From NCBI RefSeq assembly GCF_000026545.1, contig NC_011601.1: a stretch of DNA of 64,000 bases. One strand, given 5' to 3'. Shown one piece after another: positions 7,249-56,883 of the stretch. How positions within the stretch are numbered: the first letter of the stretch is position 1; every line of letters starts with the position of its first letter. The notes under the pieces were generated by a model. That model was not told the origin of the DNA. It was given only the letters and a program-made list of their open reading frames with translations, and ran no database searches. A program made the position numbers and the translations under genes. Source of the DNA: Escherichia coli O127:H6 str. E2348/69. Lineage in GTDB: Bacteria; Pseudomonadota; Gammaproteobacteria; Enterobacterales; Enterobacteriaceae.

Positions 7249-7422
7249 ATGCTTCCCAATCCCTAAAATTACTTTGAGGTTATTAATATGCTATCAGACG
7301 GGGGTTCGCTGCATTAATCGCGCCAGAATATCCCGTTAATAGAACGAGTTAAACGGTCGATGATTTCTCACCTTACCGAAATTTTGTTTATCAAATGTAA
7401 AGTATTATTACGTTAGGCCGCG

Positions 7423-7450
7423 ATGAGAATTGAGTAAAGATAATTCTCAT
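7423..7450. promoter_or_regulatory. Perfect 9-bp inverted repeat (atgagaatt N10 aattctcat) upstream of the ABC operon, candidate operator
   Basis: Palindrome read directly, about 175 bp upstream of the binding-protein start; no known regulator assigned. Confidence 0.3.
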
Positions 7451-7533
7451 TTGCAATCGTGACAGGAATAGAAGAACAACCGAGAAGACGTCGCTAATAA
7501 CCAGAATGGGCTGGTTTGACTGCGCAGGTATGT

Positions 7534-7570
7534 ATAAAAAAATCCGGAAACAGAGAGTCGTTTCCGGATT
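7534..7570 (-). terminator. Rho-independent terminator of fdhF
   Basis: Stem aatccggaaac / gtttccggatt followed by a T-run on the minus strand, ~50 nt after the fdhF stop. Confidence 0.8.
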
Positions 7571-7622
7571 GATACAAAGGCGTTGGGTAATATCGCCGCT
7601 TTTAACGTGAGTTTACGCGGTA

Positions 7623-9770
7623 TTACGCCAGTGCCGCTTCGCGCAGGCGAGTTTTCAACTTGTTGTACTCGTCAATCACGTACTGCTCGGCGGCGCGCTG
7701 ATCGGCGATCGGCTCGACGCGCACGGCGCAGTATTTGTATTCCGGCGTTTTCGTAATCGGGCTTAAGTTTTCGGTAACCAGCTCGTTACAGGCACCAATC
7801 CACCACTGGTAGGTCATGTAAATCGCCCCTTTGTTCGGACGATCGCTGACCTGCGCACGGGTGATAATTTTGCCTTTACGCGAGTGCACCCAAACCAATG
7901 CCTCATCTTCAATACCCAGACGTTTGGCGTCTTCGGTATTGATTTGTGCGTAGCCAGGTTCATCAGCCAGCGCCGCCAGTGCCGCACAGTTACCGGTCAT
8001 CGAACGGCAAGAGTAGTGACCAACTTCACGCACCGTTGACAGTACCATCGGGTACTCGTCGGTGAGTTTGTCGATTGGCGCGACCCAGTCGCAGGTGAAG
8101 AACTGCGCCAGACCGTTCGGGGTATCAAACTTCTCTTTAAACAGATAAGAAGTCCCCTGATCGGCATCTGAAGTATCCCGGCAAGGCCACTGAATGAAGC
8201 CCAGTTCGCCCATTTTTTCGTAAGTCGCACCGTAGAAATCCGGGCACAGATGACGCAACTCATCCCAGATCTCCTGGGTGTTGTTGTAGTGCATCGGATA
8301 ACCCATACGGGTGGCGATTTCACTGATAATCTGCCAGTCCGTTTTCAGATCCCATTTCGGTTCAACCGCTTTGAAGAAACGCTGGAAGCCACGGTCAGCC
8401 GCAGTAAACACGCCTTCATGCTCGCCCCACGACGTTGACGGTAAAATAACATCCGCCGCCGACGCGGTTTTGGTCATAAAGATGTCCTGAACGATGACCA
8501 GTTCCAGATCTTCAAAGGCTTTACGTACTGCCGACAGCTCCGCGTCAGTTTGCAGCGGATCTTCGCCCATAATGTACGCGGCACGCACTTCGCCATGCGC
8601 TGCGCGGTGCGGCAGCTCGCTGATGCGATAGCCGGTATGAGCAGGCAGGCTTTCCACGCCCCAGGCTTTGGCGAATTTCTCGCGGTTAGCCGGATCTTTC
8701 ACGTACTGGTATCCCGGATACGTATCCGGCAGCGCGCCCATATCGCAGGCACCCTGCACGTTGTTCTGACCACGAACCGGGTTTACACCCGCATGCGGCT
8801 TACCGAGGTTACCAGTCAGCATCGCGAGGCTGGTCAGAGAACGCACGGTTTCCACGCCCTGGTAGAACTGGGTTACACCCATGCCCCACAGGATGGCGGC
8901 GCTTTTCGCCTGGGCATACATCCGCGCCGCCTGACGAATCTCACTGGCGCTGACGCCGGTGATATCTTCAACCGACTCCGGCGTGTAGCCTTCAACGATT
9001 TTACGATACTCTTCAAAGCCTTCTGTACGGGAAGCGACGAAAGCTTTGTCGTACAGGTTTTCTTCAATAATGACATGGCCCATCGCATTCAACAGCGCGA
9101 TGTTCGAGCCGTTTTTCAGTGCAATGTGCATGTCAGCAATGCGCGCGGTTTCAATTTTGCGCGGATCGCAGACGATAATTTTCGCCCCGTTACGTTTAGC
9201 GTTAATTACGTGATTCGCCACGATTGGGTGGGAATCCGCCGGGTTGTACCCGAAAACGAACACTAAATCGGTATTATCAATTTCGTTAATAGCATTGCTC
9301 ATTGCGCCATTACCGACCGATTGGTGCAGACCTGCAACCGATGGGCCGTGTCAGACACGAGCGCAGCAGTCAACGTTATTGGTACCAATAACGGCGCGCG
9401 CAAATTTTTGCATTACATAGTTGGTTTCGTTACCCGTACCACGCGAGGAGCCGGTCGTCTGGATGGCATCCGGACCGTACTTCTCTTTGATGGCGCTCAG
9501 GCGCTCGGCAACGTAATTCAGTGCCTCATCCCAGGAAACAGGTTCGAGTTTGCCGCCACGCTGGCGACGGATCATGGGGGTTTTCAGGCGCGGGGTCAGG
9601 ATCTGGGTATCGTTAATGAAATCCCAGCCATAATAACCCTTCAGACACAGGGTACCCTGGTTGGTTTTCCCCTGCGCTGCCTCCGCCCGGACGATTTTGC
9701 CGTTATCGACGACCAGGTTGATTTTGCAACCTGATGCGCAATAGGGGCAAACCGTGACGACTTTTTTCAT
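7623..9770 (-). CDS. fdhF: Formate dehydrogenase H, selenocysteine-containing molybdoenzyme
   Basis: Track ORFs 9351..9770 and 7623..9302 are in the same frame across a single TGA; 716 codons total; N-terminal Cys cluster CPYCASGCK. Confidence 0.95.
9305..9353 (-). other. In-frame UGA selenocysteine codon (9351..9353) with downstream SECIS region
   Basis: TGA flanked by ...DCCARV and HGPSVAGLHQSVGNG...; bacterial SECIS elements lie immediately 3' of the UGA. Confidence 0.85.
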
Positions 9771-9810
9771 CGGTCTCGCTCCAGTTAATCAAATCACGCA
9801 TACGCGCTCT

Positions 9811-9827
9811 CGACTACAGTATGCATC
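9811..9827 (-). promoter_or_regulatory. Sigma-54 (-24/-12) promoter of fdhF
   Basis: Minus-strand TGGCAT-N5-ATGCA matches the TGGCAC-N5-TTGCA spacing, about 40-55 nt upstream of the fdhF start. Confidence 0.75.
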
Positions 9828-9899
9828 TTTTATGCCACATTTTATTTGGGGTCATTCCCTGATATTACGGGCACTATTTATTCAAAACTCTGACGAAAA

Positions 9900-9955
9900 A
9901 CAGGCTGTCGTCAGTTTTGACGTGACGAAACGAAATACCGCGTGACAGCCATCAC
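9900..9955 (-). promoter_or_regulatory. Putative enhancer (FhlA upstream activating sequence) for fdhF
   Basis: Inverted-repeat-rich segment (tgtcgtca / tgacgtgacg / cgtgacagcc) about 80-130 bp upstream of the sigma-54 element; assignment by position only. Confidence 0.4.
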
Positions 9956-9967
9956 GCGGCAGACATT

Positions 9968-11434
9968 TTATTTTTTCTCGACGACGGGAGCCGCCTGATA
10001 CCCGCCGCCCAGCGATTTCATCAACTGAATGCTTTGGATCACCCGGCGGCTGTCCAGCATCAGTAATGACATCTCTTCGGCAAGTACTGGCAACCGGGCT
10101 TCAGTGGCCTGTAAGCGGCTGGTTAAGCCGCGTTGATAGGCGGCCTCGGCAGCGCGCTGGGTGAAGCGCGTTGCTTCCACGCGTTCAGCCTGCATCTCTC
10201 GCTCGTCGTTGAGCGTTTGCAGACGCGTGCCGTTGACGGCAACGTCGCGCACCGCATTCAGCACTGACTGGTTGTAACGTTCAATCATCATGTTGCTGGC
10301 GGCGCGAATGCCTTCGAGATTGGCATTCAACCGTCCACCGTCAAACAGCGGCAATTTCAGACCCGGGATAAAGTTGAACTGGCGACTGGTTTTTTTGAAT
10401 AAGGTATCCAGGTGGATAGAATCCAGGCCGAAAAACGCTTTGATATCAAAGCTCGGGTAGAACAACGCCCGCGCGGAATCCACCTGATCTAATGACGCCT
10501 GAACATACCAGCGCATCGCTTGCAGATCCGGGCGTCTGGCGAGCAACTCATAAGAGAGTGTCGCCGGAATACCGGTCTGGACTCGTGGTAATGCCACCGG
10601 TTTGATCTCCGGCATATCGCTGGCTCCCGCGCCAATCAATGCGCGCAGAGATTCCCGCGTTTCAGTGATTTGCCCTTTGACGGCAGCAATTTGTTTATCG
10701 ACCGCCAGAATCTGTGCCCGCGCGCCGTGGAAAGGCACTTGCGCTTCCAGACCGTGCGCCACTTTACTCTGGTGCGCTTTCACCGCGTAATCAATCACAT
10801 CGCGAGTTTGTTCTAACAGATCGAGCATCTGATAGCTGGCCTGCATACTGTAATAAAGCTGCGCTACGCCCGTGGTCAGCGATAGCTCTACTGCTGCGGT
10901 TTCTGCCAGCGCGGCATTATGCGCGCCAATGGCGGCAGCAACCGCTGAGCGATGCACACCCCACAAATCGAGATCCAGTCCGGCAAACAAACCGACTGTG
11001 GCTTCCGTATAGTACGGCCCGTCCATCCCCAGTGCGGGCGCATCCATCGCATAAGGGCTTAAAAAGCCGTTCGCCGAGACACGTTGGCGGTTGAGCATCC
11101 CTAACGCTGCGACCTGTAATTGTGAACCGGCATCTAACAAATCGGCCTGCGACTGCGCTTTTTCTTCCCGCAGTTTCGCTTCGGCGAGGGTGTGTGAACC
11201 ACTTAGCGTCTGTTGGACCAGTGCATCCAACTGCGGGTCATTGAGTTGTTTCCACCACTGCGCCTGCGGCCAACCGGAGCTGGCAAGATGAATATCATCG
11301 GCCAGTTTGATTTGTTCCGGTTTGAGCTGTTGATGAGGCGCAGAATCCTTACGTACCAGGGCACAGCCGGAAATCAGCGTCGTGCTGCCGAGAATGCTGC
11401 ACAACAGCAGGCGTGAAAGTTGACGATTGATCAT
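9968..11434 (-). CDS. mdtP: Outer-membrane efflux channel (TolC/OprM family) of putative efflux pump
   Basis: 488 aa with lipoprotein-type signal (LISGCA); downstream of mdtO. Confidence 0.88.
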   Translation of the reverse strand: MINRQLSRLLLCSILGSTTLISGCALVRKDSAPHQQLKPEQIKLADDIHLASSGWPQAQWWKQLNDPQLDALVQQTLSGSHTLAEAKLREEKAQSQADLLDAGSQLQVAALGMLNRQRVSANGFLSPYAMDAPALGMDGPYYTEATVGLFAGLDLDLWGVHRSAVAAAIGAHNAALAETAAVELSLTTGVAQLYYSMQASYQMLDLLEQTRDVIDYAVKAHQSKVAHGLEAQVPFHGARAQILAVDKQIAAVKGQITETRESLRALIGAGASDMPEIKPVALPRVQTGIPATLSYELLARRPDLQAMRWYVQASLDQVDSARALFYPSFDIKAFFGLDSIHLDTLFKKTSRQFNFIPGLKLPLFDGGRLNANLEGIRAASNMMIERYNQSVLNAVRDVAVNGTRLQTLNDEREMQAERVEATRFTQRAAEAAYQRGLTSRLQATEARLPVLAEEMSLLMLDSRRVIQSIQLMKSLGGGYQAAPVVEKK

Positions 11435-48036: not shown

Positions 48037-50307
48037 TTACGCTTTCACACACATAACGTGGTAAATACCGTCAATAATTTCTGTCCCTTCTGTTTCGTGT
48101 TCAAATCCAGGGAAATGATGGTCCCAGGATTGCAGCGAGCGTAAATAACTTACTTGCGGACTGTTTTTATCGCCGAAGTTTTCACCAGACAGCAGCATCG
48201 GGATTCCTGGCGGATACGGGATAACTGAGTTTGCCGCGATACGTCCTGGCAGATTTTCAATGGATACCAGTTCGACATTGTTGTCGACAATCGCGTTGTA
48301 CGCTTCACGCGGGGTGATTTCCGCCACCGGCAGGCCGGAATAGGCTTCATTCAACCGTGCGCCAGGGTTGTTTTCTTTCAGCCAGGCAAACATGGTGTCA
48401 CCCAGATCGTGAATCCCCATGTTCGCGTAAGTGTCAGGATATTGTTCAACAAGTTCCGGCATCACCTGCGCCAGCGGTGTGTTGGCATCATAGTGGCGTT
48501 TGAAGGAGCAAAGGGTGTTAACCAGAGTTCCCCATTTCCCACGGGTCACGCCCATAGAGAACAGGAACATAATCTGGAAGTCAGTGGTACGGGTAGGCAC
48601 AATGCCGTGGCGACCAAGCCAGGCTGTGACCAGCGCCGCCGGAACACCGGTTTCTTCCAGTTCACCATCTTCACCCATTCCCGGAGCAAGGATGCTGACT
48701 TTAATCGGGTCGAGCATACTCCAGTTATCCGGAATATCTTTGAAGCCGTGCCAGCTTTCGCCCGGATGCATGACCCAGCAGTCCTGAACGGTGGTCAGCA
48801 GTTTGGTTGGTGCGTCAGCAAAGTCATAGGTTTTGCCGGTTTGTGGGTCGGTGACGACTTCTTTGTTCCACGGTTTGAAGAACCAGCTACCGTCAGCGGT
48901 GAACTCTTTATACAGCCGCGCCATCGCCTGACGGAAATCAACCGCTTCGTCGATCACTTCCTGAGTCAGTGACAGGCCGCTGTTGCCGTCCATCATCGAC
49001 ACCGCCACGTCGTTGGATGCGCAGATGGCATACAGCGGGGAGGTGGTGGCATGCATCATGTAGGCCTGGTTGAAGCGGGAGAAGTTAATCGCCCCACGAC
49101 CTTCACGTACATGAATATAAGAGGCCTGTGACAGCGCATTCAGCAGTTTGTGGGTGGAGTGGGTGGCGAAAACGGTAGGGCCGTTGTGATCGCCAGGTTC
49201 GCCGCGCATGGCATAGTGATCGGCATAGATCGGGTTGAAACGTGCATAGCCGTACCAGGCTTCGTCAAAGTGCAGACGATCGGAGGTTTTTTCCAGCAGA
49301 TCCTGCGCTTCTTTAGCGTTATAACACACGCCGTCATAGGTGCAGTTGGTCACCACGCAGTAAGACGGTTTTTGCCCGGCTTTGTCTTTAGTCAGCGGGC
49401 TTTCATTGATTTTCTTCTGCAAGGTTTCAGGTTGCATTTCCTGCGGATAGATTGGCCCGATAATGCCGTAGCGGTTGCGGCTTGGCACCATGTAGACCGG
49501 TTTCGCGCCGGTCAGCATCAAGCCTTGTTCGATGGATTTATGGCAGTTACGGTCAACGACCACGACATCGTTATCGGTCATGCAAGCCTGCATGATGGTG
49601 CGGTTAGAGCCGGAAGTACCGACGACTACCGACCAGGAGCGATCGGCACCAAATACGCGTGCGGCATATTTTTCGCTTTCGCCAAATGCGCCAGTATGGT
49701 CAAGCAAAGAACCGAGGGAAGTGCGTTCGATGCCCATGTCGGTGCGGAACAGATTTTCACCATAATAGTCATGGTAGAAACGTCCGGCGGGTGTTTTGGT
49801 AAAACCAACGCCGCCCTGGTGGCCTGGCGCTGCCCAGGAATATTCATGGATGTCGCTATATTTCATCAGCGCGCTGAACAGTGGCGGCAACAGCTGCTGG
49901 CGGTAGCGGGTCATCGCGGCAACGGCGCGTCCGGCGATAAAGTCGGCGGTATCTTCCAGAATCCAGGCGAATTCATCGACAAGCTCCAGCAGATCCCGGT
50001 CCATTGCGGCGAGGGCTTTTTCCCGATCGCCCAACAGGAAGACCGGCACGTTTTGTTGGCGCTCATGAAGCTTACCGATCAATTGTCTGACGTTTTGATG
50101 TTCGTCCGGATGTTCCATTTGATAGCTGAACATCAGGCAGTCAATGGCTTCGTTTGAAGAGAGAATGGCAAAACCATCATCAAAGGAGGTGGATTTAATC
50201 ACGGTAACATTTTGCTGGCTTAAAGCATCTGCCAGACGCTCAACGGCGTTACCGACCCAGGTGTCTTGATGGAGAAACTCGCTTTCAACAATTAATACTT
50301 TCATCAT
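48037..50307 (-). CDS. adiA: Biodegradative (acid-inducible) arginine decarboxylase
   Basis: PLP-dependent Orn/Lys/Arg decarboxylase; track start MMKV, true start may be the second Met (50304). Confidence 0.93.
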   Translation of the reverse strand: MMKVLIVESEFLHQDTWVGNAVERLADALSQQNVTVIKSTSFDDGFAILSSNEAIDCLMFSYQMEHPDEHQNVRQLIGKLHERQQNVPVFLLGDREKALAAMDRDLLELVDEFAWILEDTADFIAGRAVAAMTRYRQQLLPPLFSALMKYSDIHEYSWAAPGHQGGVGFTKTPAGRFYHDYYGENLFRTDMGIERTSLGSLLDHTGAFGESEKYAARVFGADRSWSVVVGTSGSNRTIMQACMTDNDVVVVDRNCHKSIEQGLMLTGAKPVYMVPSRNRYGIIGPIYPQEMQPETLQKKINESPLTKDKAGQKPSYCVVTNCTYDGVCYNAKEAQDLLEKTSDRLHFDEAWYGYARFNPIYADHYAMRGEPGDHNGPTVFATHSTHKLLNALSQASYIHVREGRGAINFSRFNQAYMMHATTSPLYAICASNDVAVSMMDGNSGLSLTQEVIDEAVDFRQAMARLYKEFTADGSWFFKPWNKEVVTDPQTGKTYDFADAPTKLLTTVQDCWVMHPGESWHGFKDIPDNWSMLDPIKVSILAPGMGEDGELEETGVPAALVTAWLGRHGIVPTRTTDFQIMFLFSMGVTRGKWGTLVNTLCSFKRHYDANTPLAQVMPELVEQYPDTYANMGIHDLGDTMFAWLKENNPGARLNEAYSGLPVAEITPREAYNAIVDNNVELVSIENLPGRIAANSVIPYPPGIPMLLSGENFGDKNSPQVSYLRSLQSWDHHFPGFEHETEGTEIIDGIYHVMCVKA

Positions 50308-50502
50308 TGCTTACCCGGTTATGAAGGAATCTTCGTTGCGGGCAAGTATCTTCCGGCCTTTTCGGGCTGTAAAGGGCGTGAAAAACAAACATTTTTTGGA
50401 TATTTATTTTTATAAACAATACGTTATGTGATTATTTTAAATTATTTTCACTGCTTATTATCGACGGCTAAACTATTTTTTTGGCTGATACTGATATCGT
50501 CT

Positions 50503-51411
50503 TTAGCCGGGAAACGTCTGGCGGCGCTGTTGGCTAAGTTTGCGGTATTGTTGCGGCGACATGCCGACATATTTGCCGAACGTGCTGTAAAAACGGCTAC
50601 TCGAACGAAAGCCTGCCGTCAGGGCAATATCGAGAATACTTTTATCGGTATCGCTCAGTAACGCGCGAACGTGGTTGATGCGCATCGCGGTAATGTACTG
50701 TTTCATCGTCAATTGCATGACCCGCTGGAATATCCCCATTGCATAGTTGGCGTTAAGTTTGACGTGCTCAGCCACATCGTTGATGGTCAGCGCCTGATCA
50801 TAGTTTTCGGCAATAAAGCCCAGCATCTGGCTGACATAAAATTGCGCATGGCGCGAGACGCTGTTTTTGTGTGTGCGCGAGGTTTTGTTGACCAGAATCG
50901 GTTCCCAGCCAGAGAGGCTAAATCGCTTGAGCATCAGGCCAATTTCATCAATGGCGAGCTGGCGAATTTGCTCGTTCGGACTGTTTAATTCCTGCTGCCA
51001 GCGGCGCACTTCAAACGGGCTAAGTTGCTGTGTCGCCAGTGATTTGATCACCATGCCGTGAGTGACGTGGTTAATCAGGTCTTTATCCAGCGGCCAGGAG
51101 AGAAACAGATGCATCGGCAGATTAAAAATCGCCATGCTCTGACAGGTTCCGGTATCTGTTAGTTGGTGCGGTGTACAGGCCCAGAACAGCGTGATATGAC
51201 CCTGATTGATATTCACTTTTTCATTGTTGATCAGGTATTCCACATCGCCATCGAAAGGCACATTCACTTCGACCTGACCATGCCAGTGGCTGGTGGGCAT
51301 GATATGCGGTGCGCGAAACTCAATTTCCATCCGCTGGTATTCTGAATACAGCGACAGTGGGCTACGGGTCTGCTTTTCGTCGCTGCTGCACATAAACGTA
51401 TCTGTATTCAT
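50503..51411 (-). CDS. melR: Melibiose operon activator (AraC family)
   Basis: 302 aa; divergent from melA. Confidence 0.92.
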   Translation of the reverse strand: MNTDTFMCSSDEKQTRSPLSLYSEYQRMEIEFRAPHIMPTSHWHGQVEVNVPFDGDVEYLINNEKVNINQGHITLFWACTPHQLTDTGTCQSMAIFNLPMHLFLSWPLDKDLINHVTHGMVIKSLATQQLSPFEVRRWQQELNSPNEQIRQLAIDEIGLMLKRFSLSGWEPILVNKTSRTHKNSVSRHAQFYVSQMLGFIAENYDQALTINDVAEHVKLNANYAMGIFQRVMQLTMKQYITAMRINHVRALLSDTDKSILDIALTAGFRSSSRFYSTFGKYVGMSPQQYRKLSQQRRQTFPG

Positions 51412-51561
51412 GGATGACTCTCTTTCCTGGAATATCAGAATTATGGCAGGAGTGAGGGAGGATGACTGCGAGTGGGAACACGCTTTTCACCCTCTTCCCA
51501 CAGCGGAGAGGGGAGCGTCCGAGCATCATGAGGCCGAAAACTCTGCTTTTCAGGTAACTTA

Positions 51562-51615
51562 TTCCCATAAACTCAGATTTACTGCTGCTTCACGCAGGAT
51601 CTGAGTTTATGGGAA
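51562..51615. promoter_or_regulatory. Inverted pair of MelR-type operator sites in the melR/melA divergent promoter
   Basis: ttcccataaactcagat ... atctgagtttatgggaa, inverted copies with centers ~37 bp apart; assignment to MelR by position and known architecture. Confidence 0.55.
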
Positions 51616-51693
51616 TGCTCAACCTGGAAGCCGGAGGTTTTCTGCAGATTCGCCTGCCATGATGAAGTTATTCAAGCAAGCCAGGAGATCTGC

Positions 51694-53049
51694 ATGATGT
51701 CTGCACCCAAAATTACATTTATCGGCGCTGGTTCGACGATTTTCGTTAAAAATATTCTTGGTGATGTGTTCCATCGTGAGGCGCTGAAAACGGCGCATAT
51801 TGCCCTGATGGATATCGATCCCACCCGCCTGGAAGAGTCGCACATTGTGGTGCGTAAGCTGATGGATTCAGCAGGGGCCAGCGGCAAAATCACCTGCCAC
51901 ACCCAACAGAAAGAAGCCTTACAGGATGCCGATTTTGTGGTGGTGGCATTTCAGATTGGCGGTTATGAACCTTGCACGGTGACTGATTTCAAGGTCTGTA
52001 AGCGGCATGGTCTGGAACAAACCATTGCCGATACGCTGGGGCCGGGCGGCATTATGCGTGCGCTACGTACCATTCCGCACCTGTGGCAGATTTGCGAGGA
52101 CATGACGGAAGTCTGCCCCGATGCCACCATGCTCAACTATGTTAACCCAATGGCGATGAATACCTGGGCGATGTATGCACGCTATCCGCATATCAAGCAG
52201 GTAGGGCTGTGCCATTCGGTGCAGGGAACGGCGGAAGAGCTGGCGCGTGACCTCAATATCGATCCGGCTACGCTGCGTTACCGTTGCGCAGGTATCAACC
52301 ATATGGCGTTTTACCTGGAACTGGAGCGTAAAACCGCAGACGGTAGCTACGTGAATCTCTATCCTGAATTGCTGGCGGCTTATGAAGCAGGGCAGGCACC
52401 GAAGCCAAATATTCATGGTAATACTCGCTGCCAGAATATTGTGCGTTACGAAATGTTCAAAAAGCTGGGCTACTTCGTCACAGAATCGTCAGAACATTTT
52501 GCTGAGTACACACCGTGGTTTATTAAGCCAGGTCGTGAGGATTTGATTGAGCGTTATAAAGTACCGCTGGATGAGTACCCGAAACGCTGCGTCGAGCAGC
52601 TGGCGAACTGGCATAAAGAGCTGGAGGAGTATAAAAACGCCTCCCGGATTGATATTAAACCGTCACGGGAATATGCCAGCACAATCATGAACGCTATCTG
52701 GACTGGCGAGCCGAGTGTGATTTATGGCAATGTCCGTAACGATGGCTTGATTGATAACCTGCCACAAGGATGTTGCGTGGAAGTGGCCTGTCTGGTTGAT
52801 GCTAATGGCATTCAGCCGACCAAAGCCGGTACGCTACCTTCGCATCTGGCCGCCCTGATGCAAACCAACATCAACGTACAGACGCTGCTGACAGAAGCTA
52901 TTCTTACGGAAAATCGCGACCGTGTTTACCACGCCGCGATGATGGACCCGCATACTGCCGCCGTGCTGGGCATTGACGAAATATATGCTCTTGTTGACGA
53001 CCTGATTGCCGCCCACGGCGACTGGCTGCCAGGCTGGTTGCACCGTTAA
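51694..53049 (+). CDS. melA: Alpha-galactosidase (GH4, NAD/Mn-dependent)
   Basis: 451 aa; N-terminal Rossmann motif KITFIGAGS. Confidence 0.93.
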   Translation: MMSAPKITFIGAGSTIFVKNILGDVFHREALKTAHIALMDIDPTRLEESHIVVRKLMDSAGASGKITCHTQQKEALQDADFVVVAFQIGGYEPCTVTDFKVCKRHGLEQTIADTLGPGGIMRALRTIPHLWQICEDMTEVCPDATMLNYVNPMAMNTWAMYARYPHIKQVGLCHSVQGTAEELARDLNIDPATLRYRCAGINHMAFYLELERKTADGSYVNLYPELLAAYEAGQAPKPNIHGNTRCQNIVRYEMFKKLGYFVTESSEHFAEYTPWFIKPGREDLIERYKVPLDEYPKRCVEQLANWHKELEEYKNASRIDIKPSREYASTIMNAIWTGEPSVIYGNVRNDGLIDNLPQGCCVEVACLVDANGIQPTKAGTLPSHLAALMQTNINVQTLLTEAILTENRDRVYHAAMMDPHTAAVLGIDEIYALVDDLIAAHGDWLPGWLHR

Positions 53050-53696
53050 GGGGTAATCGCTTCCGGCGCTCTGGTGATTAAGCCAAAGCGCCGTAGCTGG
53101 CGGCAATGAAAGCGGGCGAGGAATATCACCGTCGTTAATGCGCCCAGTAGTGCGCAGAACATATCGGATTGCGTATCCCACGGGTCGCCTTGAGTACCGA
53201 GAAAATCATCTGCGCCCTGGCCCATTGCCAGCGCTGCCCACCACTCGATTAACTCATACATCGCGCTTATCGCCAGCGCGACACAACAGACCAAAAACGC
53301 CACCATTTTACGCCCGCGAACGTACATCCCGCGTACAAGGATCTCTCGTGCCACCAGTGCAGGCACCAGCCCCTGGAAAAAATGCCCCAGTTTGTCATAC
53401 GGATTACGGCTCAACCCCAGCCATTCCTGTACCTCAAAACCAACGGGGACTTTCGCGTAGGTGTATTGCCCGCCGACCATCAGGATGATGGCGTGAAAGA
53501 AAATGAGCGTATAGAGCAGCGGCGTTAACGGATAACGTTTAGCGGTGGCAAGCAGTAGCGGCACGACAATAATCACCGGTGTCACTTCCATCAGCCAGGT
53601 GAGTTTGTCATGGGCCGAAATGCCGGTATAAATCAGGATTAACGTTAGCGCCAGTGCGCCGGTGTTAAGAATTAACGGCTTGAGTGTGCGGGTCAT
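53046..53696 (-). CDS. yjdF: Inner membrane protein YjdF
   Basis: 216 aa polytopic membrane protein; stop codon overlaps the melA stop convergently; C-terminal tail may be junction-derived. Confidence 0.8.
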   Translation of the reverse strand: MTRTLKPLILNTGALALTLILIYTGISAHDKLTWLMEVTPVIIVVPLLLATAKRYPLTPLLYTLIFFHAIILMVGGQYTYAKVPVGFEVQEWLGLSRNPYDKLGHFFQGLVPALVAREILVRGMYVRGRKMVAFLVCCVALAISAMYELIEWWAALAMGQGADDFLGTQGDPWDTQSDMFCALLGALTTVIFLARFHCRQLRRFGLITRAPEAITP

Positions 53697-53818
53697 GGTG
53701 AGTTCGCAAGTCAGGGAAAATACTGACTATTGACCAGTAAGCGTGAAATTACAATCGCAAAAGAGGTGGCCCAGGGGGATCACCTGGCAGCATGCTGCCA
53801 GGCGCTGGGCCGAAGAGG

Positions 53819-55465
53819 TTACTTAGTGCAGTTCGCGCACTGTTTGTTGACGATCTGCTGGAAGAAGTCGTTACCTTTGTCATCGACCAGGATAAACGCC
53901 GGGAAATCTTCTACTTCGATTTTCCAGATAGCTTCCATACCCAGCTCCGGATAAGCGACGCATTCCAGATGCTTGATGCTCTGCTGCGCCAGTACCGCCG
54001 CCGGACCGCCGATACTACCGAGGTAGAAGCCGCCGTGTTTATGGCACGCGTCGGTAACCTGCTGACTGCGATTACCTTTCGCCAGCATGATCATGCTGCC
54101 GCCGTGGGATTGCAGCAGATCCACGTAGGAGTCCATACGACCTGCGGTGGTTGGGCCAAGTGAACCTGATGGATAACCGGCAGGCGTTTTCGCCGGACCC
54201 GCGTAGTAGATCGGGTGATCTTTGATGTACTGCGGCAGTTCTTTACCGGCGTCAATCAGCTCTTTCAGCTTGGCGTGTGCAATATCGCGACCCACGATAA
54301 TGGTGCCGGTGAGCGACAAGCGGGTGGATACCGGGTATTGCGAAAGCTGGGCAAGGATCTCTTTCATCGGGCGGTTAAGGTCGACTTTCACTGCTTCGCC
54401 TTCACCTGCCTGACGCAGTTCTTCTGGAATGTACTGGCCTGGATTGTGTTCCAGTTTTTCGATCCAGATACCTTCGCGGTTGATTTTCGCTTTAATGTTA
54501 CGGTCAGCGGAGCAGGAGACTCCCATGCCTACCGGGCAGGATGCGCCGTGACGTGGCAGACGGATAACGCGGATGTCGTGCGCGAAGTATTTACCGCCAA
54601 ACTGCGCGCCAAGACCGAGTTTCTGGGCCTCTTCCAGCAGTTCCTGTTCCAGCTGGATATCGCGGAACGCCTGACCATGTTCGTTCCCTTCCGTCGGCAG
54701 TTCATCGTAATAGTGAGCGCTTGCTAACTTGACGGTTTTCAGGTTGGTTTCCGCAGACGTACCGCCAATCACAAACGCGATATGGTACGGCGGGCAGGCT
54801 GCAGTACCGAGGGTACGCATTTTCTCGACGAGGAAGTTTTTCAGTTTGCCGGGCGTCAGCAGGGCTTTGGTTTCCTGGTAGAGATACGTTTTGTTGGCAG
54901 AGCCGCCGCCTTTAGCGACACAGAGGAATTTGTACTCATCGCCATCTACCGCGTACAGGTCGATTTGCGCAGGCAGGTTCGTGCCGGTGTTGACCTCTTT
55001 ATACATGTCCAGCGGCGCGTTCTGTGAATAGCGCAGGTTATCTTCGATATAGGTGTTATAGACGCCTTTCGACAGCGCTTCTTCATCACCGCCCCCGGTC
55101 CACACGCGCTGACCTTTTTTACCGACGATGATCGCGGTGCCGGTATCCTGGCAGGTCGGCAGCACGCCTTTGGCGGCGATTTCGGAGTTTCTTAAGAATT
55201 GCAGCGCCACGTACTTGTCGTTTTCGCTGGCTTCTGGATCGTGAAGAATAGCCGCAACCTGTTTCTGGTGTGCCGGGCGGAGCATGAAAGAAGCGTCGTG
55301 AAAGGCTTGCTGCGCCAGCAGGGTCAGGGCTTCTGGTTCCACTTTCAGGACGGTTTCGCCGTCGAAGTCGGCAACGCTAACGTAATCGGAAGTGAGTAGA
55401 TAGTATTCGGTATTGTCTTTCCCCATCGGGAAAGGTGCCTGGTAGATAAAGGGTTTGTTTGACAT
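53819..55465 (-). CDS. fumB: Class I (Fe-S) fumarate hydratase, anaerobic
   Basis: 548 aa. Confidence 0.95.
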
Positions 55466-55542
55466 AGCTTCCAGCCTGTAACTCTGTATTTGTTATTTGA
55501 AAATGGCGTGCCGCGTAGTTACGGGCGGCACGCAAAGTGCAT

Positions 55543-56883
55543 TTATAAGAATCCGTACATCGCGGCGAAGATCCAGCCGAAGACGCACGATACGCTCACA
55601 CCAATCAACCCCGGCAGAATAAAGCTGTGGTTGATGACGAAGCGACCGATGTGGGTGGTGCCGGAACGGTCAAACTGAATCGCTGCCAGATCGCTCGGAT
55701 AAGTCGGCAGGATGTAATAACCGTAGCAAGCCGGTGCTGAAGCCACGATGTATGCCGGATCAACGCCGATCGCCAGCGCGACCGGAACAATCGCCGCCAG
55801 CGCTGCAGCCTGAGAGTTTACAAACTTTGAAACCAGCAGCAGAACAATGGCATAGGCCCACGGATACTCTTTCACCATTTCACCCAGCACGCCCTGAATT
55901 TCAGACATATGCGCACCGAACATGGTTTCAGCCATCCATGCGATACCGTACACCGCCACGATGGCGATCATACCGGAACGGAAAACTTCGTTTTTTGAGA
56001 TAGACGCGGGATTGGTTTTGGTCAGGATAATAATCAGCGCCCCGGTCAGCAGCATAAACATCTGAATAACCAGTACCATCGACAGCGGTTTGCCGCCGAA
56101 GGATGGACGCAGGTCCGAATCAGCACCAAGAAGGGCGACTACAGCGATTGCCCCGAGGAAGATCCACATTGCCAGCCAGTTGCTTTTCGGCAGTTTTTTA
56201 TCGAGCAGCGTCGCGGTATCACCGTAAACATACTCACGGTTTTCCGGTACGGAGATGAATTTCTGGAACTCTTCGTCTTTATCCAGATCTTTACCGCGGA
56301 ACCAGCTGAAGATACCGATCGCCAGGATACCGATTAACGTCGATGGAATGGTGATTGCCAGCAGGTCGAGGAACTCAAGATGGCGACCATCAAAGGTGAC
56401 ATTACCCAGCATCGCAACCAAAGATACGACCGCAACCGACACCGGACTGGCGATAATCCCCATCTGTGCACCAATAGAACTTGCCGCCATCGGACGTTCC
56501 GGACGGATGTTGTTCTTAATAGCAACGTCGTAGATGATCGGCAGAATGGTGTAAACCACATGACCCGTACCGCAAAGAATGGTCAGCGTACAGGTCACAA
56601 ACGGCGCGACAATTGAGACATATTTCGGGTTGCGGCGCAGCAGCTTCTCGGCAATTTGCAGCATGACATCAAGACCGCCCGAAGCTTGCAAGGTCGCCGA
56701 TGCTGCCACCACCGCAATGATAACCAGCATGACATCAACCGGTGGTTTACCTGGCTGAAGGTGGAAGACGAAGACCAGAATGACCAGACCGATACCGCCT
56801 AATAAACCCAGCGCGATACCCCCCTTTCTGGCACCATAAAACAGACATATCAGTATTATGATAAGTTGGATAGTAAATAACAT
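55543..56883 (-). CDS. dcuB: Anaerobic C4-dicarboxylate antiporter
   Basis: 446 aa polytopic transporter. Confidence 0.95.

Follow-up and report, generated by a model that had tools for sequence, protein, structure and literature searches.

What has become of melB in the EPEC strain Escherichia coli O127:H6 str. E2348/69, and is its absence the mark of a natural allele, of a laboratory construct, or of a fault in assembly? In the K-12 reference, melB, which encodes the melibiose permease, sits between melA and yjdF. In the window, by which we mean the whole 64,000-nucleotide stretch of the E2348/69 chromosome that was analysed, melA and yjdF run directly into one another. The loss at the level of the gene is already published; it is genuine, and nothing out of the ordinary. 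Touchon et al. (2009, PLoS Genet, Table 5), whose analysis included E2348/69 and placed it in phylogenetic group B2, give melB as specifically absent in B2, along with cynRTSX, hcaREFCB, puu and others (PMC2617782). A later study found the melibiose degradation genes to be negatively associated with B2 (Touchon et al. 2020, PMC7314097). A second B2 hallmark is seen in E2348/69 as well, as cynRTSX is missing beside lacA.

Our observation and that of the 2009 paper are the same gene-level fact, and they differ in scope and detail. The group-specific absences in Table 5 come from presence/absence scoring over 20 genomes and present the loss as B2-specific, whereas the junction described here also occurs outside the B2 archetypes and in other species. 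The junction itself, the hairpin relic and the YjdF extension, all described below, lie outside what a tabulation of that kind reports. A literature search combining melB with phylogroup B2, and E2348 with melibiose, yielded nothing that deals with the junction or with the melibiose phenotype of E2348/69.

The convergent junction of melA and yjdF

The features of the locus, in order along the window, are the following.

50503..51411, minus strand: melR, encoding the AraC-family activator of the mel promoter; an intact ORF of 302 aa, 100% identical to K-12 MelR
51412..51693: the divergent melR-melA regulatory region, 282 bp, the K-12 length
51564-51578 and 51599-51613: the inverted repeat CCCATAAACTCAGAT / ATCTGAGTTTATGGG, a putative MelR operator pair
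51694-53049, plus strand: melA, encoding alpha-galactosidase; an intact ORF of 451 aa, with its TAA stop at 53047-53049
53046-53696, minus strand: yjdF, encoding a DUF2238 inner-membrane protein; an ORF of 216 aa with a C-terminal extension derived from the junction
53046-53049, both strands: a TTAA palindrome that holds the TAA of melA (plus) and the TAA of yjdF (minus), as read from the sequence
53050-53069: the 20-bp filler GGGGTAATCGCTTCCGGCGC, a remnant of the melA-melB intergenic hairpin, from its loop and right arm; on the minus strand it encodes APEAITP of YjdF
53064-53093: a junction-made hairpin of 30 nt, CGGCGCTCTGG...CCAAAGCGCCG, from RNA folds of both strands

The bases at 53040-53059 are gcaccgTTAAggggtaatcg, and the minus-strand yjdF stop, TAA, is the reverse complement of the TTA at 53046-53048. 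The PGAP annotation of the identical E2348/69 record likewise has melA and yjdF with a 4-nt overlap. No MelB-coding sequence was found anywhere in the 64-kb window, either by tblastn with K-12 MelB or by blastn with the interval that K-12 has and the window lacks, the latter search giving only REP-like matches of 35-41 nt. The absence of melB and the overlap of the two stop codons, both proposed in a sequence-only reading of this DNA, are thus borne out by the sequence, by the list of ORFs and by the searches of the window.

How does the locus differ from that of K-12? The gene order, adiA-melR-melA ... yjdF-fumB-dcuB, is shared, and the promoter-proximal regulatory sequence is identical. Homology to K-12 in blastn alignments extends through the melA stop, to window position 53049 inclusive, at 98.2% identity, and picks up again at 53070, in the last sense codons of K-12 yjdF, at 94.0% identity. 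Between these points K-12 has 1,665 bp and the window 20 bp (53050-53069). Missing relative to K-12 are the 102-bp melA-melB spacer, melB, the 138-bp spacer that follows it with its REP elements, and the yjdF stop codon. Of a canonical melR-melAB locus the window has the divergent melR, the repeat-bearing regulatory region and an intact melA, and it lacks the downstream melB. Unlike the melAB operon of K-12, melA here is monocistronic and converges straight on yjdF, whose product is seven residues longer.

The origin of the 20-bp filler bears on the direction of the change. Fourteen of its 20 bases, including the exact 9-mer TTCCGGCGC, match positions 24-43 of the K-12 melA-melB intergenic region, where the hairpin lies (shuffle p about 0.003-0.004), and no comparable match was found in the other K-12 spacer or on the other strand. 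The filler is what remains of that hairpin, and the melB-less state is therefore derived by deletion from a melAB ancestor. Such a derivation agrees with the melA-melB order seen in the sequences of Citrobacter, Salmonella, Kluyvera, Vibrio and Photobacterium. A further 23 bp immediately after the melA stop is gone relative to K-12, so that either the event was complex, or a second small deletion came later.

A likely course of events is that an ancestral Escherichia had the order melR, melA, melB, yjdF, and that about 1.65 kb was lost in a single event. The loss would have taken melB whole, the greater part of the spacer before it and, on the other side, the REP-bearing spacer together with the yjdF stop, and would have left 20 bp of the spacer hairpin behind. 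The yjdF reading frame would then run across the relic and end in the TTAA that it has in common with the melA stop. By inspection, no microhomology or repeat was found at the breakpoints that would explain how the deletion arose. K-12 has a TTAT(T)CCGG repeat, which was considered as a deletion substrate and set aside, as the observed junction bypasses it.

The consequence for YjdF is plain. The K-12 protein is 209 aa long and ends ...GLITG*, and that of the window is 216 aa long and ends ...GLITRAPEAITP*. Because the yjdF stop has been removed, the frame continues across the 20-bp relic as far as the TTAA and gains seven residues, which upholds the earlier suggestion that the tail RAPEAITP was made by the junction. 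All seven carriers of the junction that were examined have a yjdF of 651 bp, with the tail RAPEAITP, RAPEAITS or RAPEATTP. For annotators, then, a 216-aa YjdF together with a melA/yjdF overlap is a genuine allele, and not an error.

The junction has also made a new secondary structure. The relic arm CCGGCGC pairs with GCGCCG within the 3' end of yjdF to give the 30-nt hairpin at 53064-53093, the stem of which is found in the minimum-free-energy and centroid folds of both strands, with a z of about -2.5. No T-run follows this hairpin on either strand, and a promoter and terminator scan of the junction gave no convincing or canonical intrinsic terminator between the convergent genes. The sequence-only reading, which saw no terminator here, was right as regards a canonical intrinsic one, though a hairpin does form. 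From the modelled folds, this hairpin might have some role in ending or stabilising transcripts. Induced melA transcription could conceivably run on convergently into yjdF, though this is speculation. An Rfam scan of positions 50000-56000 gave only two matches, to plant miRNAs, both sub-threshold and both on the MelR-site palindrome, and we take these to be due to chance.

Distribution and descent of the deletion allele

Is the junction peculiar to this one record? It is tight and looks designed, with its 4-nt stop overlap and neither spacer nor terminator, and one might suspect a scarless engineered deletion, or an assembly collapse specific to the window sequence. Either is barely credible in view of the distribution of the junction. 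Three independent E2348/69 assemblies match the window at 100% identity, and the junction occurs unbroken in 1,263-1,264 of 5,426 complete E. coli genomes (about 23%). The roughly 1,260 other genomes that carry it come from humans, dogs, koala, possum, armadillo, chicken, pigs and wastewater in many countries, and do not stem from one laboratory construct. Other Escherichia species have the same junction with accumulated substitutions, and the absence of melB was listed as a B2 trait in Table 5 of the 2009 paper (PMC2617782). The sequence-only reading had left the choice between a natural and an engineered origin undecided and had called for a check of the assembly; the answer from these genomes is that the junction is natural, old and widespread.

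Of the 5,426 complete E. coli genomes, 4,137 contain the K-12 melB interval. Together with the 1,263 that have the junction, this accounts for 5,400 of the 5,426, and the near-complementarity of the two counts argues against a copy of melB elsewhere in the E2348/69 chromosome. Identity at the junction among carriers is 95.7-100%. The carriers include 536, NC101, NGF1 and ST131, and also 042, an ST648 strain, O139:H1 pig strains and the EC17GD31 group. We take 042 to belong to phylogroup D and ST648 to phylogroup F, and the O139:H1 pig strains and the EC17GD31 group presumably also belong to D or F. The allele is accordingly spread over B2, over parts of D and F on these presumed assignments, and over several other Escherichia species. 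Its exact junction sequence is a possible lineage marker.

A species scan that used one genome per species found this filler, this right breakpoint and this YjdF tail in three more records, namely in E. whittamii (L003), in a species representative labelled E. coli SCPM-O-B-8794 (L004), and in Escherichia sp. E1V33 (L080). In melA, yjdF and fumB these three are 3-11% different from E2348/69, the figure of about 3% applying only to fumB of E1V33. A consensus of the allele consists of the melA stop, the filler GGkGTArTyGCTTCCGGCGC, and then yjdF, TCTGGTGAT..., and the window fits it. The filler of the window is that of ST131 and ETEC6334, and is 1-3 nt different from those of EC17GD31, E1V33, SCPM-O-B-8794 and E. 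whittamii. Across all seven melB-less Escherichia sequences examined, the filler is kept with 1-3 substitutions, and the three species representatives other than E2348/69 have 1-2. Genes this diverged, flanking a filler this well kept, argue for what would be one old event, as opposed to a recent transfer or a recurrence.

Losses confined to melB are also seen in Citrobacter, where they take another form. In C. youngae CCUG 30791 and Citrobacter sp. MGH106, melR and melA are kept and yjdF lies next to melA, as in the window; the breakpoints are different, however, a REP-like hairpin remains as a spacer of 40-70 bp, the stop codons stand apart and YjdF has no extension. Two types of melB-only junction occur in this genus with melR and melA retained, one in L011 and L021 and the other in L025, L026 and L070. 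To judge from the compared sequences, the Citrobacter losses are independent of the Escherichia deletion. Within E. coli, one genome has an IS1B-mediated deletion that runs from pmrR to melB, and several have IS insertions inside melB. In Raoultella and the Klebsiella oxytoca group, loci with melR-melA lack a melB within 6 kb.

Might the Escherichia deletion, then, have occurred several times at one site, by some site-specific mechanism involving the hairpin or the REP elements? The breakpoints do adjoin hairpin-forming sequences, and the Citrobacter junctions, the IS1-mediated deletion and the IS insertions indicate that melB alone has been lost repeatedly. But the 20-bp filler, the right breakpoint and the additional loss of 23 bp are common to all Escherichia carriers, whereas the independent Citrobacter events, with their clearly different junctions, illustrate what recurrence looks like. 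We consider a recurrent origin very unlikely. We infer instead that the deletion had a single origin and is of great age. The deletion allele would have persisted beside the melB-containing allele and would have moved between lineages by homologous recombination. The window contains the E2348/69 copy of it. The best explanation of the locus, to which we assign a probability of about 0.9, is a natural, old deletion allele of mel in which MelR and MelA are retained and the substrate enters through LacY.

The sequences that flank the junction carry little trace of this history. Among E. coli genomes, allele-linked SNPs reach no further than about 10 nt rightwards of the junction, so that recombination has uncoupled the indel from its flanks, and for the same reason the phylogeny of the flanks cannot distinguish an ancestral polymorphism from a cross-species transfer of short tracts. 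The lower identity to K-12 of yjdF (94%) than of melA (98%) had suggested a deeply diverged deletion haplotype. That idea was dropped: yjdF is hypervariable across E. coli, with differences of 3-7% between any two lineages, and the divergent stretch belongs to the E2348/69-type yjdF allele and not to the deletion. A comparison of melB-less EC17GD31 with melB-positive 48956, which have the same MelA protein accession, did not define a clean recombination tract, as many synonymous differences lie on both sides of the junction.

MelR and MelA in the absence of MelB

Does a mel locus that has lost its permease gene still function? The sequence-only reading described melR, the MelR operator pair and melA as intact, and the comparison with K-12 confirms it. 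The regulatory region has 11 substitutions relative to K-12, all at positions 6-147 counted from the melR side, and everything from the inverted repeat through the melA ATG is identical. We take the repeat to be the pair of MelR sites from what is known of the melAB promoter, and its designation here is putative. MelA has four substitutions relative to K-12 and no stop, and is 99% identical.

Among melB-less lineages the dN/dS of melA is 0.014-0.03, at a dS of 0.2-0.43, and that of melR is 0.013-0.045, the same as in melB-positive pairs. Both genes are under strong purifying selection without melB, at a dN/dS of about 0.02. The maintenance of MelR and MelA by selection in lineages lacking melB implies that the substrate has another route of entry.

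What is this route? The literature points to LacY. In E2348/69 the lacI-lacZYA operon is intact, and at least 5,278 of the 5,426 complete E. coli genomes have lacY. Melibiose is also a classical cross-inducer of the lac operon. Transport of melibiose by either MelB or LacY is documented (PMC4308713). The B2 strains CFT073 and UTI89 appear as D-melibiose false negatives in metabolic models, that is, both grow (PMC3229490), and growth of UTI89 on melibiose requires a functional lacY (bioRxiv 10.64898/2025.12.03.691977). LacY-dependent uptake, the classical melB-independent route, would be the functional analogue for the melB-less locus, and E2348/69 shares with it an intact lacY. In E2348/69, MelR and MelA would form a working, selected and inducible alpha-galactosidase module, and, following the route in the literature, melibiose would probably enter by LacY in place of MelB.

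The prediction that the strain has an inducible alpha-galactosidase without its cognate permease therefore stands as a statement of gene content. Of course one might read it to mean that the strain is melibiose-negative, and that reading is not warranted, because LacY carries melibiose. The same substitution of LacY for the absent permease gene explains why genome-scale models mispredict the growth of B2 strains on melibiose. The practical value of these findings is limited, and no new kind of biology is involved.

Low diversity of melB and its possible histories

In melB-positive genomes, the melB gene is less diverse than the genes around it. Among six melB-positive sequences, for which sliding windows were also run, mean dS is 0.023 for melB, 0.084 for melA, 0.125 for yjdF and 0.107 for fumB, so that the synonymous diversity of melB is about four-fold under that of its neighbours. 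The larger set of genomes gives a similar picture: 4,126 of the 4,137 melB intervals are at least 99% identical to K-12, as against 2,926 genomes for melA and 2,919 for fumB. In MOD1-EC7003, a divergent strain, the flanks have a dS of 0.13-0.18, yet melB has a dS of 0.009-0.021 and is nearly identical to that of K-12. It is suggestive, in a dS sample of six sequences, that the melB segment coalesces later than its flanks. The low diversity may fit a sweep within the melB-positive class of alleles, or a re-spread of melB by recombination, and here too the figures are suggestive only.

What history might lie behind this pattern? Tentatively, the presence and absence of melB may be a very old polymorphism that runs across Escherichia species, and not a peculiarity of B2. 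The melB-less arrangement, with MelR and MelA served by LacY, would then be a stable and selected state that predates E. coli, and melB would be a mobile cassette that homologous recombination recently swept, or brought back, through the melB-positive lineages. A recent sweep or re-introduction of that sort would account for the four-fold lower synonymous diversity.

A different possibility, and a doubtful one, is that the melB-less state is ancestral for E. coli, and was already that of the ancestor which it shares with its sister species. The K-12 type would then be derived, melB having been regained by homologous recombination from a lineage that kept it and later carried into A, B1, C, E and parts of D and F. 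The low dS of melB, its near identity to K-12 in almost all genomes that have it, and the case of MOD1-EC7003 would all be expected from such a regain, as would the finding of one junction both in early-branching groups of E. coli and in three further representatives of Escherichia species. The 20-bp relic, however, shows that the melB-less state comes ultimately from a melB-positive one, and melAB is the order in the five other genera named above. The sequence on either side of K-12-type melB is of E. coli character as far as the junction, with no divergent donor visible. An insert of low diversity is also expected if the melB-positive class was small or was recently swept, and the dS values come from just six melB-positive sequences. 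An old deletion allele that derives from a melAB ancestor and coexists with the melB-containing one remains our preferred account of the melB-less locus.

An old deletion allele shared across species, a trough of diversity at melB and the repeated loss of melB alone are of modest interest for the study of gene-level sweeps and of redundancy between pathways. The repeated losses in Citrobacter, in which melR and melA again survive, would on the reading of an old polymorphism suggest that MelB carries a general cost, or that it is redundant with LacY-type permeases.

Sequence diversity around melB

Among melB-positive strains (K-12, L002:4370-5791, compared with the mel loci L005, L083, L084, L085 and L090), mean dS in melB is 0.023, roughly four-fold below the synonymous diversity of its neighbours melA (0.084), yjdF (0.125) and fumB (0.107). 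Of the 4,137 complete E. coli genomes that have the melB interval, 4,126 match K-12 over it at 99% identity or more; for melA and fumB only about 2,920 genomes reach that identity.

Two stretches of the window stand out for their variation:
51478-51520, substitution cluster, melR-proximal part of the melR-melA intergenic region
53070-53696, polymorphic yjdF

Within E. coli, yjdF is unusually variable, almost any pair of lineages differing at 3-7% of nucleotides, with the peak of variation in the 3' half of the gene, and its alleles look mosaic. Despite the melB deletion in both, yjdF of the E2348/69 type differs from the ST131 allele by 3.5%. The melR-melA intergenic region carries 11 substitutions relative to K-12, most of them grouped at intergenic positions 67-113. 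This substitution-rich stretch, which lies upstream of the conserved MelR-site repeat, is G+C-rich and looks self-complementary (CACCCTCTTCCCACAGCGGAGAGGGGAGCG).

Other loci without melB

Coordinates are internal to each extracted locus:
L011, L021, L025, L026 and L070, ~7353-7425 in each, Citrobacter melB-only deletions
L089, 4288-5094, IS1B-bounded deletion, E. coli PI7 (NZ_CP074033.1)
L039-L044, ~7350-10500, region 3' of melA, Raoultella / Klebsiella oxytoca group

The Citrobacter deletions are independent of the Escherichia one, and their junctions differ from it; a REP-like hairpin is kept at these junctions, and melR and melA are still present. In E. coli PI7, a separate IS1B-bounded deletion has removed the entire adi and mel region, fusing pmrR directly to the melB-yjdF spacer. 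No MelB homologue was found within 6 kb in L039-L044, though melR-melA is present; the ORFs that come after melA in Raoultella ornithinolytica are a DnaJ-like one (cbpA-type) and then one for a TerC-like membrane protein.

The lac region of E2348/69

L092, 4515-6530, codA-lacA neighbourhood, E2348/69 (NZ_LT827011.1)

Here codA adjoins lacA directly, and cynRTSX is therefore absent, which Touchon 2009 (PMC2617782) also gives as a B2-specific absence. The annotation of the same genome treats both ehaB and yaiW as pseudogenes with frameshifts.
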